A stretch of DNA of 12,453 nucleotides, from NCBI GenBank assembly GCA_964507075.1, contig CAZDOL010000004.1, forward strand, positions 1,177-13,629. Direction: 5' to 3'. The stretch comes from an uncultured Gammaproteobacteria bacterium. Lineage in GTDB: Bacteria > Patescibacteriota > Patescibacteriia > UBA2591 > UBA6264. Of the stretch, positions 2,426-10,343 are shown piece by piece; within the stretch, counting starts at the first letter, position 1; each line of letters opens with the position of its first letter. Position numbers and translations under genes: made by a program. Under the pieces are notes generated by a model. That model was given only the letters and a program-made list of their open reading frames with translations, was not told the DNA's origin and did not search any database.

Positions 2426-2508
2426 AGAAGTTGGTTAATTGGTTAATTAGGTAATTGGTTAATTGGGATTTTAAAATACCTAATCCCCAAGTACCCAAGT
2501 ACCTAAGT
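2426..2508. repeat. Spacer element E1: two blocks of phased 8-nt units filling the rpmJ-rpsM gap
   Basis: The plus strand reads GGTTAATT GGTTAATT AGGTAATT GGTTAATT (2433-2464), then the spacer GGGATTTTAAAATA, then CCTAATCC CCAAGTAC CCAAGTAC CTAAGT (2479-2508). It shares 9-10-mers with the element at 8743-8817. Confidence 0.7.
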
Positions 2509-2622
2509 TTATCCTTGTCTTTGTTTGTGCTTCGGGTTTTTACAAATAACATAAATCCTCTTCCCTCGACGGACTATCTTGCACGAATTACACATTTTTT
2601 TCACTGAAGATCTCACTTTCAT
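2509..2622 (-). CDS. rpmJ: 50S ribosomal protein L36
   Basis: At 37 aa it is too short for the ORF track. The reverse-strand reading frame runs from ATG 2622..2620 to TAA 2511..2509 and gives [37 protein letters not shown], canonical L36. It sits in the conserved infA-rpmJ-rpsM position. Confidence 0.9.
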
Positions 2623-7957: not shown

Positions 7958-8027
7958 ATGATTATTTATTAAATGATAAATATTAATATGAGATAAATAA
8001 TTTTCAGAAAAGATTCACTGTTGCTGC

Positions 8028-8056
8028 AAAAAACAAACCCGACGGGTTTGTTTTTT
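8028..8056 (-). terminator. Strong intrinsic terminator after rplA (symmetric, potentially bidirectional)
   Basis: AAAAAACAAACCC-GAC-GGGTTTGTTTTTT is a perfect 13-bp palindromic stem with a 3-nt loop and a T6/A6 run on either side. It begins 8 nt after the rplA stop. Confidence 0.8.
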
Positions 8057-8064
8057 AAGATTGA

Positions 8065-8742: not shown

Positions 8743-8817
8743 AAACGCTTCGCTTAGTTACTTGGTTAATTAGTTAATTAGGATCCAGATTACCTAAGTA
8801 CCCGATTACCCGATTGC
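8743..8817. repeat. Spacer element E2: second copy of the phased 8-nt-unit element, filling the rplK-rplA gap
   Basis: The plus strand reads GGTTAATT AGTTAATT AGG (8764-8782), then the spacer ATCCAGATT, then ACCTAAGT ACCCGATT ACCCGATT GCC (8792-8818). It shares TTGGTTAATT, GTTAATTAGG and TACCTAAGT with E1. Confidence 0.7.
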
Positions 8818-9243
8818 CTAATCTTCTACCTCTATGCCCATTTGTTGAGCGGTTCCAGATATAATTTTAACTGCTTGGTCTAAATTGTCGGTATTTAAAT
8901 CTGGTATTTTTATTTTAGCAATCTCTTTAATTTTAGATTTAGAAATATTTCCTACTTTTTTCTGTAAAGAATTTCCTGAACCTTTATCAATATTAATCGC
9001 TTTCTTTAAAAGATCAGTGGTTAAAGGAGTTTTGAGAATAAAACTGTAAGTGCGATCTTCATAAACGCTAATTTCAACCGGCAAAATATAACCAACCTGG
9101 TCCTTGCTTTTCTCGTTAAATTGCTGACAAAATTCTGAAATATTAAGACCATGCTGTCCTAATGCTGGGCCCACAGGAGGCGCAGGATTAGCTTGTCCAG
9201 CTTGAATTTGTAATTTAATAATAGATATAATTTTTTTTGCCAT
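8818..9243 (-). CDS. rplK: 50S ribosomal protein L11
   Basis: The 141-aa ORF reads MAKKIISIIKLQIQAGQANPAPPVGPALGQHGLNISEFCQQFN..., canonical L11. Confidence 0.95.
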   Translation of the reverse strand: MAKKIISIIKLQIQAGQANPAPPVGPALGQHGLNISEFCQQFNEKSKDQVGYILPVEISVYEDRTYSFILKTPLTTDLLKKAINIDKGSGNSLQKKVGNISKSKIKEIAKIKIPDLNTDNLDQAVKIISGTAQQMGIEVED

Positions 9244-9416
9244 ACTAAATTTGTCTAAATTTATGAGTTACGAAGTAACGAAAAAAATTTCGTTTCAAAT
9301 TTAAGTACCCTGTTAAATGTCGCCCTGCGACAATTTCGCTTTTAGCGAAATTATTTAACAGGGTAAAGGTTTTCTATCAAAAATTTCTATGTCTACGATT
9401 TAAAATTTTTGAGAAA
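9244..9416 (-). promoter_or_regulatory. Repeated structured leader element, copy 1 (upstream of rplK)
   Basis: By hand alignment, 9247-9365 matches 10162-10280 at 108 of 119 positions. The core 9308-9363 folds as three perfect helices (11, 8 and 5 bp). Further hairpins lie at 9267-9294 and 9378-9411. The element ends 3 nt before the rplK ATG. Confidence 0.6.
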
Positions 9417-9421
9417 GCCCT

Positions 9422-9967
9422 TTACAACTTTTTAATTTGCAAAAAATCAAGTTCAGTGGGCGTTTCCCGACCAAAAACCGAAATTAAAATTTTAACTCTT
9501 CCTCGCGCCTCATCAATAGAGGCAACTTTCCCTTCAAAACCCTTGAAGGGTCCATCAATAACCTTTACTGGCGCGTTAATCTTTATGTCAATTTTATATT
9601 TTGGCTCTTCTACTCCCATTCTCTTTTGAATGGTTTTAATTTCTTTTTCGTCCAAAGGAATGGGTGTTGTTCCAGAACCGATAAAACCAGTAACATTGGG
9701 GGTGTTGCGAACCACATACCAAGAATCATCAGTAACTATCATATCAACAATAACATAACCAGGAAAAATTTTCTCTACAACAATTTTTCGTTTACCGTTT
9801 CTTATTTTTATTCTTTTTTCTATTGGAACCAAAACATTAAAAATTTTATCTGACATTCGCATAGATTCGATTCTTTGACACAAACTATCAGCAACATTTT
9901 CCTCATAACCAGAATAAACGTGAATTGCATACCAACGCCGTCCTTCGTGTTGTATTTGCTTAGGCAT
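9422..9967 (-). CDS. nusG: Transcription termination/antitermination factor NusG
   Basis: The 181-aa ORF has an NGN domain (RWYAIHVYSGYEENV...FPGYVIVDM) and a KOW motif (GPFKGFEGKVASID). It lies between secE and rplK, as in the conserved cluster. Confidence 0.93.
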   Translation of the reverse strand: MPKQIQHEGRRWYAIHVYSGYEENVADSLCQRIESMRMSDKIFNVLVPIEKRIKIRNGKRKIVVEKIFPGYVIVDMIVTDDSWYVVRNTPNVTGFIGSGTTPIPLDEKEIKTIQKRMGVEEPKYKIDIKINAPVKVIDGPFKGFEGKVASIDEARGRVKILISVFGRETPTELDFLQIKKL

Positions 9968-9973
9968 AGAAAA

Positions 9974-10156
9974 TTATATTACTAATTGTAAAACTTTCGT
10001 TAAAATGAAATCAACTATCCCCAAAAAAAGCGCCATACCTAAACTGATTCCCACTACTAAAAAAGTGTGATTAATTGTTTGCTTCTTGGTTGGCCAATTC
10101 ACCTTCTTAAGTTCTATAACAGAATTCCTAAAATAATTAGATATTTTATTTGACAT
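9974..10156 (-). CDS. secE: Preprotein translocase subunit SecE (short, single-TM form)
   Basis: From the ATG at 10156 the product is MSNKISNYFRNSVIELKKVNWPTKKQTINHTFLVVGISLGMALFLGIVDFILTKVLQLVI (60 aa), which has the typical E(L/V)KKV.WP motif plus one TM helix. The ORF-track start at 10213 lies inside the repeated non-coding element, so I reject it. Confidence 0.8.
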   Translation of the reverse strand: MSNKISNYFRNSVIELKKVNWPTKKQTINHTFLVVGISLGMALFLGIVDFILTKVLQLVI

Positions 10157-10333
10157 ATACCAAATTTGTCTAAATTTACGAGTTACGAAGTAACGAAGGA
10201 AATTTCGTTTCAAATTTGAGTACCCTGTTAAATGCTACTCTGTAGCAATTTCGCTTTTAGCGAAATTATTTAACAGGGTAAGGTTTTGTTACTGAAAAAT
10301 CTTCACCCTACGGGTTTGATTTTCTCAGATAAA
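10157..10333 (-). promoter_or_regulatory. Repeated structured leader element, copy 2 (upstream of secE)
   Basis: This is the same element as 9244-9416. The three-helix core is at 10223-10278, with P3 changed by three compensatory pairs. The upstream hairpin is at 10294-10324. The element ends 5 nt before the secE ATG. Confidence 0.6.
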
Positions 10334-10343
10334 ATCCTTATTT

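Follow-up and report, generated by a model that had tools for sequence, protein, structure and literature searches.

Structured repeats at the rplK and secE start codons of a Patescibacteria gene cluster are probable ORF-less derivatives of a GIY-YIG nuclease cassette

The stretch of DNA analysed here, hereafter the window, comprises 12,453 nucleotides with a GC content of 33% and derives from a genome of the Patescibacteria type. Its minus strand carries gyrB (12430-10412), secE (10156-9974), nusG (9967-9422), rplK (9243-8818), rplA (8742-8065) and tmk in this order, the first five assigned by Pfam, and further on infA, rpmJ, rpsM, rpsK, rpsD and rpoA. The putative rpmJ gene for ribosomal protein L36 was found by eye as a 37-codon ORF under the cut-off of the ORF list (2508-2621, minus strand). 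No tRNA or tmRNA genes were detected in the window by ARAGORN. An intergenic repeat unrelated to the element described below occurs on the minus strand between the rplK stop codon and the rplA ATG (8743-8817) and again between the rpmJ stop codon and the rpsM ATG (2426-2507), and consists of GGTAAT/TTAACC-type heptamer runs that form an imperfect palindrome.

A preliminary description of this DNA had reported that one non-coding element lies directly upstream of both rplK and secE. Its ungapped alignment of positions 9247-9365 with 10162-10280 was reproduced exactly, with 108 identities in 119 nt, compared with a chance level of 33.4 +/- 5.2 (maximum 54) for random pairs of 119-nt segments of this sequence, whose GC content is 33%. 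The more diverged continuation of about 50 nt that it had noted is also present (29 of the next 51 nt are identical), and a repeat finder pairs 9242-9414 with 10157-10329 (173 nt, 81%). Both copies share the orientation of their downstream gene and the flanking coding sequences are unrelated, in agreement with the earlier proposal of a reused non-coding module rather than a gene duplication. The extent needed revision in part, in that the copies do abut the start codons but the homology is longer than first described, at about 183 nt per copy.

Copy A, before rplK, occupies 9241-9424 of the minus strand as a full-length match of 146 bits to an nhmmer profile of 12 copies, with the nusG stop codon TAA (9424-9422) at one end and the rplK ATG (9243-9241) at the other. 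Copy B, before secE, occupies 10154-10340 of the same strand (137 bits by nhmmer; also delimited by comparison with an allele that lacks the element, at L006) and runs from a TAAGGAT just past the gyrB terminator to the secE ATG (10156-10154). Here and below, L numbers are locus labels, of which L001 is the source contig itself, 100% identical and retrieved, together with several near-identical contigs, by an exact look-up of the NusG protein. A third copy with 88% identity fills the gap between the T2SSE stop codon and the T2SSF ATG (L001:1315-1501), 8 kb outside the window. This amounts to three copies in 20.5 kb of the source contig, and four to five were counted in 9.2 kb of L139, densities that are biased upward because patterns derived from the element itself served to retrieve the majority of loci.

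Each copy is composed of three side-by-side hairpin modules, termed D1, Y and D3, and the RNA folds of the two copies have z scores of -6.0 and -6.8. In copy A, the 5′ hairpin D1 (9365-9421, minus strand) was delimited by its fold and by an alignment of 12 copies (A1), in which the base of the hairpin is conserved (AAAGGGCTTT...AAAACCTTT) and the tip is variable. It is followed on the same strand by the Y core (9307-9364; DNA fold of -22.2 kcal/mol, z = -8.4) and by the 3′ hairpin D3 (9244-9306), defined by its fold, whose basal stem reaches the rplK ATG directly. The corresponding modules of copy B, also on the minus strand, are D1 at 10280-10340 (fold and sequence comparison), the Y core at 10222-10279 (DNA fold of -20.6 kcal/mol, z = -9.35) and D3 at 10157-10221 (fold and alignment A1), which stops 2 nt short of the secE ATG. 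The 3′ end of D3 is conserved as CAAATTTRGT-ATG.

The Y core forms a three-way junction with zero unpaired junction bases, in which two short variable hairpins sit on a 12-bp helix formed by pairing of ACCCTGTTAAAT with ATTTAACAGGGT. The arms of this helix lie at 9364-9353 and 9318-9307 in copy A, enclosing hairpin A (9352-9332) and hairpin B (9331-9319), and at 10279-10268 and 10233-10222 in copy B, enclosing hairpins A (10267-10247) and B (10246-10234), all on the minus strand. Hairpin B reads GTCGC/GCGAC in copy A versus GCTAC/GTAGC in copy B, and therefore differs by three compensated pairs, with the surrounding 45 nt identical.

Compensated pairs of this kind are unusable as proof of RNA function here, because the pairing is strand-symmetric and palindromes can homogenise as DNA. 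Overall, 97% of the pairs are Watson-Crick, and among about 1570 pairs the number of G-U pairs is 49 in the sense and 51 in the antisense orientation. The antisense fold is slightly more stable than the sense fold. Given this symmetry and the stability of the antisense fold, the data provide no evidence for a function of the sense RNA and fit palindromes in DNA.

This bears on the proposal, made in the preliminary description, that a shared module implies co-regulation of secE-nusG and rplK-rplA by one factor, which could be L1 or another ribosomal protein acting on a cis-regulatory RNA leader. The element does resemble leaders such as the L1 site region and the L10 leader in being a structured RNA directly upstream of rplK, and the rplK leader of E. 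coli carries the L1 site, as is textbook knowledge. The sense RNA is strongly structured, as the z scores given above indicate, and the element adjoins both start codons, with the basal stem of D3 pairing the 10 nt upstream of the ATG. However, near-perfect Watson-Crick palindromes without a sense G-U excess and with a slightly more stable antisense fold speak against such a leader, as does the interior of Y, which is flipped relative to its flanks in some copies (L046, L013 and L032) and can be so within a single flank family. A cmscan of the whole window against Rfam at E <= 1 found nothing in either copy (9241-9424 or 10154-10340), in keeping with the earlier remark that it was not recognised as any known leader or riboswitch family. 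The only Rfam match in the window is a weak one to the SpF51 sRNA at 2674-2721 (29.8 bits; gathering score 50), most likely just the terminator hairpin after infA.

The preliminary description had also considered a portable promoter/leader cassette. The portable leader part of this idea comes close to the truth, but no promoter was found. Promoter-like sites number 9, compared with 7.0 +/- 2.4 in shuffled sequence, and none is placed to drive the genes. The window copies contain no sense-strand promoter or terminator, and the terminator-like matches are antisense. A cassette of the promoter/terminator type was rejected for the window copies. The shared TAGACA...TAAAAT match would start transcription inside the gene. 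The motif TATAGT occurs 9 nt after Y in some relatives and is absent from the window copies. The start regions of the window genes are AT-rich and lack Shine-Dalgarno sequences, with or without the element; almost none of the 16 gene starts of the window has such a sequence, and the empty secE allele of L006 has AAGGA.

A test of the regulatory reading comes from two closely related strains, L006 and L009, which encode the identical NusG and whose DNA is 99.1-99.6% identical to the window in gyrB, secE, nusG, rplK and rplA. The element is absent at both sites in both strains. Between nusG and rplK, they carry TGA plus 15 nt, versus TAA plus about 180 nt in the window, and before secE they read AAAAACCAAGGATATATGAGT versus AAAAA[TAAGGAT...TTTGGT]ATATGTCA in the window. 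The comparison of filled with empty sites revealed no target-site duplication and no clean insertion junction, and sequence was replaced instead; at the site of copy A, the 15-nt spacer is replaced and the stop codon changes from TGA to TAA. The second codon of secE (window 10151-10153) is TCA in element-bearing strains and AGT in empty ones, both of which encode Ser although all three of their bases differ. Within DNA that is otherwise 99% identical, this difference suggests replacement of the allele rather than simple insertion, and recombination may have swapped filled for empty alleles or the reverse, instead of a recent insertion having created them.

Intergenic DNA turns over fast in this region, as the rplK-rplA and rplA-tmk spacers likewise differ between the window strain and L006/L009. 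The rplK-rplA spacer of L006 is a different one of 34 nt, and its L11 protein is one residue shorter. The rplA-tmk spacer of the window (7958-8064) comprises a hairpin that resembles a bidirectional terminator (AAACAAACCCGTCGGGTTTGTTT) and, after it, 62 nt of AT-rich DNA, which are absent from L006, where only 10 nt are found.

The presence or absence of the element at fixed intergenic sites is therefore polymorphic between close genomes, and the element is dispensable between near-identical strains. The preliminary description had tied its regulatory reading to conservation at orthologous loci, and it is from these loci of 99%-identical strains that the element is missing. Unlike ribosomal protein leaders, the element is not conserved at its locus within the species, is not restricted to regulated genes, has no Rfam match and shows the symmetry of palindromic DNA. 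The same element also precedes more than 20 unrelated genes, as described below. The empty alleles largely refute the idea of a dedicated leader through which one factor controls both secE-nusG and rplKA, and we consider this explanation very improbable.

A profile built from the 12 copies of alignment A1 recovers 24 non-redundant full-length composite copies from the loci examined, and their placement is strict. All but one (23/24) end exactly at the ATG of a same-strand ORF, and about 18 of the 24 begin no more than one base from the stop codon of a same-strand upstream ORF, with TAA at offset 0 in 15. The ends of the composite are conserved (5′ TAAAGGGCTTTG, also given as TAAAGGGC; 3′ AAATTYGGY-ATG), and homology stops there. 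In one metagenome scan with an arm-plus-D3 pattern, 18 copies were found in 15 loci, and in 16 of these copies the gene start lies 57-69 nt past the Y core, at the 3′ end of D3; the two exceptions are the upstream member of a tandem pair and a copy with an enlarged D3. The more than 20 downstream genes are mutually unrelated and include rpsC, rplX, rpsO, efp, valS, serS, queA, tsaC and T2SSF, as well as holA-like and murJ-like genes and genes for membrane proteins. A generic dispersed repeat with copies in random positions and orientations, the case that the preliminary description had set against regulation, does not describe these data either, in that the copies are numerous but sit in the sense orientation from stop to start codon between co-directional genes. 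One locus (L135:159-539) holds two tandem copies 194 nt apart, in which the duplication takes in the initial 10 nt of the gene downstream, with microhomology (TAAAGA) at either end; this arrangement looks like a slippage duplication.

Strict placement from stop to start codon on the sense strand could reflect function or domestication rather than pure selfishness. One could imagine a cassette of selfish origin that is now kept as intergenic punctuation for a generic effect on operon mRNAs, with RNase III-type processing, protection from exonucleases, or translational coupling through bringing stop and start codons together as candidates. The placement of 23 of the 24 copies, the conserved ends given above and initiation without Shine-Dalgarno sites, by which structure near the ATG could matter, speak for this explanation, as does the nucleotide-level selection on the Y fold of the ORF-bearing form described below. 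However, near-identical strains do without the element, its hairpins have hypervariable tips that are swapped wholesale, and the pairing lacks strand asymmetry. Y cores are also found inside coding genes and between convergent genes. Moreover, the placement could be due to an insertion preference or to survivorship alone, because only insertions that spare both genes persist. We therefore give a present-day punctuation function only a small chance of being the correct explanation.

The Y core has a far wider distribution than the composite. When 185,579 species genomes were scanned for both arms at a spacing of 20-45 nt, at least 120 loci were obtained, and the matches listed include many Patescibacteria classes, Omnitrophota, WOR-3, Desulfobacterota (one on a 4.1-Mb contig), Bacteroidota, Cloacimonadota and others. 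In most loci the interior of Y forms two hairpins of unrelated sequence. Among the copies listed, 70 lie between co-directional genes, 8 between convergent and 7 between divergent genes. No direct repeat was found in the flanks of 127 Y copies, which show an inverted TTY...RAA instead. IMG/VR gave one Y core match, no relative was found in 50,697 GenBank phage records, and PLSDB plasmids gave only one weak match. A viral search with a degenerate C-terminal pattern of the nuclease introduced below gave 11 matches, none of which encodes a GIY-YIG homologue.

Many Y cores occupy the tips of longer family-specific palindromes, or are nested or in tandem. Nesting in, or tandem arrangement with, variant-arm Y cores (CCCCGTTAAAT, CCTCGTTAAAT) was seen at L096:4590-4700, L137:2397-2637, L014:2050-2162 and L035:4967-5067. 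A sister family with arms CCCCGTTAGAT/ATCTAACGGGG occupies the tips of D1 or D3 in L088, L091 and L098, and in L067 it flanks a GIY-YIG gene with 51% identity. Six loci from WOR-3 and Stahlbacteria (L039, L052, L066, L073, L080 and L083) have the same 12-nt arms around an interior of about 40 nt without the two hairpins, and ATCTGCG motifs are common to their flanks; they are possibly a different derivative.

Both window copies are intergenic, and in other genomes the Y core also occurs as an in-frame palindromic repeat of protein-coding genes. Seventeen Y cores lie inside long open frames of real genes, including those for GatA, FtsZ, PGK, KsgA, an IscS-like protein and glycosyltransferases, where they would be translated as (H/N/Y)PVK(S/C)...FNRV. 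The insert in PGK, for example, comprises 29 residues at a place where solved PGKs have 5. The length of Y equals 1 modulo 3 in 16 of the 17 ORF-spanning copies, and the other 110 copies are split 42/35/33 among the three classes; coding copies are thus selected to keep the reading frame, and the inserted unit is, modulo 3, 2 nt longer than Y. The element is no group I intron or ribozyme, for which its size is insufficient; it also lacks an Rfam match, and its coding inserts preserve the frame.

The probable origin of the element is seen in relatives of the window copies. In six loci (L130, L131, L134, L144, L145 and L155), D1, arms and D3 of the window type enclose an ORF that is lacking from the window copies, with the arms 279 nt apart in the first four. 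The product, MFYY.YVL...YAGYT...RLKSYLTG, is a GIY-YIG domain (Pfam PF01541, E = 1e-14), a type of nuclease that does not form a known transposase class. Intermediates of decay were also found, with a pseudogene that has an in-frame stop codon in L138 and remnants of about 120 nt in L132 and L136. Homologues of the protein fall into at least 3496 clusters with lengths of 84-89 aa and 71-91% identity to the query, and the C-terminus RLKSYLTG was present in 15/15 homologue sequences read. The autonomous form of the cassette has about 290 nt and consists of a left arm TTYACCCTGTTAAAT, a short leader, the gene for the 84-89-aa nuclease, which comprises the catalytic domain only, and a right arm ATTTAACAGGGTGA. 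From this C-terminus it follows that the right arm encodes Y-L-T-G and supplies the stop codon. One subfamily has D1 and D3 on either side of the cassette, and the unit then extends from the upstream stop codon to the downstream ATG; other lineages have a minimal cassette without D1 and D3, on the same strand and 0-12 nt from the neighbouring genes. The upstream gene sometimes terminates within the left arm, as in SerS ...HPVK-stop.

Two observations concern the surroundings of the cassette. The D1 tip of copy B, ACCC-GTA-GGGTGAA (window 10297-10307; also in L001, L139 and L141), resembles the outer ends of the Y arm pair, and can be read as its outermost bases together with the stop codon of the nuclease, which gives D1 the look of an older copy that has collapsed. 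In L180 (664-1011) and L182 (345-692), a GIY-YIG cassette lies 5 nt upstream of a gene of the 23S_rRNA_IVP/bAvd family, which is known from rRNA intervening sequences.

The ORF-bearing cassette folds as the same three-way junction. Its stem A is formed by pairing of the leader sequence AATTTTAAATTTTY with the codons for E-N-L-K-L, and its stem B by pairing of AAGATTTGAGG (R-F-E-E) with CCTCAAATCTT (R-L-K-S). In an alignment of 13 distinct ORF-bearing cassettes (A2), 99% of the cells are paired and 7/37 pairs are changed on both sides; none of 500 shuffles was as good, and slid controls gave at most 2 double-changed pairs. The arms covary in L188 and L191, freely so where the coding constraint permits. 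Third codon positions are invariant at 10/16 sites inside the stems versus 1/67 outside (p = 1e-6). In the ORF-bearing form, selection acts on the Y fold at the nucleotide level, and this pairing together with the invariant third positions establishes the three-way junction as a selected feature of the cassette. The nuclease itself is under purifying selection (median dN/dS = 0.10), and dS between variants is near saturation. Each exact variant of the nuclease was found at one locus only when looked up. From the single loci and the saturated dS, the ORF-bearing forms look old and mostly vertically inherited rather than actively jumping.

These findings permit the direction of descent to be weighed. 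The Y palindrome might instead be the primary mobile element, moved by some other enzyme of the host or of an element, and the GIY-YIG gene would then have invaded second, as a homing endonuclease gene directed at the middle of Y. The loci seen contain far more ORF-less than ORF-bearing copies of Y, which also occurs without D1 or D3, inside coding genes and in phyla that showed no copy of the nuclease, and nested and tandem copies exist in L096, L137, L014 and L035. However, this explanation is improbable, as the right arm is made of the C-terminal codons and stop codon of the nuclease in 15/15 homologues read, and stems A and B are built from nuclease coding sequence and covary with it. In addition, the pseudogene and the remnants of about 120 nt link the two forms, and hairpin A has, at its start in ORF-less copies, the AATTT of the cassette leader.

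The codons of the right arm also bear on the suggestion that a recombinase or architectural protein of the host recognises Y as a site in chromosomal DNA, such as a XerD-type half-site. The arm sequence is indeed conserved across phyla, and the inner 8 nt of each arm, TGTTAAAT, appear to match the outer end of the XerD arm of E. coli dif. However, conservation of the arms is explained by the YLTG-stop codons and by pairing, and there are dozens of copies per genome region, some of them inside genes. Since the flank listing revealed no conserved XerC arm or central region beside the arms, a dif/XerD site was rejected, and a recombinase site in general seems extremely improbable. An integron attC site was likewise rejected, since attC has its GTTRRRY and RYYYAAC boxes in the opposite order.

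We conclude that the window copies are probably non-autonomous, ORF-less derivatives of a selfish GIY-YIG cassette lodged at gene junctions of Patescibacteria (CPR) operons. The alignments and predicted folds establish that they are homologous to the ORF-bearing form and share its architecture. With the same D1, arms and D3 and the same Y fold, they can be regarded as skeletons of the cassette from which the ORF has been lost. Dispersal to many loci and presence/absence polymorphism between near-identical strains are directly observed. The complete cassette folds as a three-way junction from the arm helix and two long-range helices within the coding sequence, and the window copies would have lost the two large coding loops, leaving the junction skeleton Y together with D1 and D3. 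On the most economical reading, the copies would be co-transcribed with their operons as dispensable structured spacers.

A Slx1-like nuclease encoded within DNA that can extrude a three-way junction suggests self-recognition of structure followed by break-repair copying. In this putative mechanism of mobility, the Slx1/UPF0213-like nuclease would act on extruded Y or cruciform DNA and start break-repair copying, by which both ORF-bearing and ORF-less forms would spread. Several points need to be set against this. A GIY-YIG domain of 85 aa that lacks any DNA-binding domain does not count among the known transposases, and the single locus per nuclease variant, the saturated dS and the lack of target duplications argue against active transposition today. 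The family as a whole encodes a nuclease of homing type (GIY-YIG), with the two window copies, which have no ORF, as its degenerate members, and dispersal to many unrelated loci argues against single-site cleavage specificity. Predicted transfers of genes from Patescibacteria to other bacteria include GIY-YIG genes (PMC12455944).

In the literature searched, no account was found of the arms, of the Y element or of the cassette, and the known systems that come closest each differ in important respects. Like the seg genes of T-even phages and other I-TevI relatives, the cassette is a small same-strand GIY-YIG ORF wedged between genes that is polymorphic for presence between near-identical genomes and decays to pseudogenes, and the sequence adjacent to the insertion differs between filled and empty alleles. 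However, its protein has only 84-89 aa and consists of the catalytic domain alone, with no DNA-binding domain; inverted repeats of 12-15 bp delimit the cassette, which has a three-way junction fold and abundant ORF-less derivatives at many unrelated loci. As noted, no match was found in the phage records. REP/REPIN sequences with their RAYT genes are likewise dispersed, multi-copy intergenic palindromes related to inverted repeats that flank one nuclease gene, and a hairpin-forming doublet is the replicative unit of REPINs. RAYTs, though, are HUH/Y1 transposases, whereas the cassette ORF encodes a GIY-YIG protein; furthermore, the arm of the cassette overlaps the ORF stop codon, the element fits from stop to start codon in operons, and the core is also found in frame in genes and in several phyla.

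Rickettsia palindromic elements resemble the Y core in being short palindromes that lie in frame in genes as well as between them, with no evident target duplication. They are confined to Rickettsiales and have no associated nuclease gene, whereas the Y core is shorter (45-68 nt), with fixed arms and a three-way junction rather than a simple hairpin. The element also has the small size, inverted repeats (arms of 12-15 bp) and many copies of MITEs and of the Correia elements of Neisseria, which like it are non-autonomous, gene-adjacent and probably co-transcribed, but no DDE transposase or target-site duplication was seen and the parent is a nuclease cassette instead of an insertion sequence. 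The closest solved structures to the nuclease, 1zg2 (E = 5e-5) and 1ywl (E = 1e-4), belong to UPF0213/COG2827 (YhbQ of E. coli, YazA of B. subtilis; Slx1 family), whose members share the size class of a single URI/GIY-YIG domain. The similarity is low, and only the cassette clade has the ...RLKSYLTG tail and the setting of inverted repeats and Y fold. UPF0213-type proteins are not known to belong to mobile cassettes. The nuclease Slx1 is selective for structure (PMC7017083).

It is possible, and we propose it tentatively, that the family represents a new class of mobile element, in which a catalytic-domain-only GIY-YIG protein of about 85 aa, encoded in its own three-way-junction fold, would mobilise itself and ORF-less skeletons, and would have colonised operon junctions, hairpin tips, essential genes in frame and possibly rRNA genes across Patescibacteria and other anaerobic phyla. 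Annotators of CPR operons should not infer regulons from structured spacers that several operons share. The intergenic regions seen here change between 99%-identical strains, and inserts of the HPVKS...FNRV type in CPR proteins are element-derived. The data join three things that have been treated separately, namely the abundant small GIY-YIG ORFs of CPR bacteria, a dispersed palindrome and in-frame insertions of the Rickettsia type. This link offers the small UPF0213/Slx1-like nucleases a candidate substrate in the form of their own Y junction, and may also explain the short ORF-less non-intron insertions and GIY-YIG ORFs that have been reported in CPR rRNA genes (PMC11270868).
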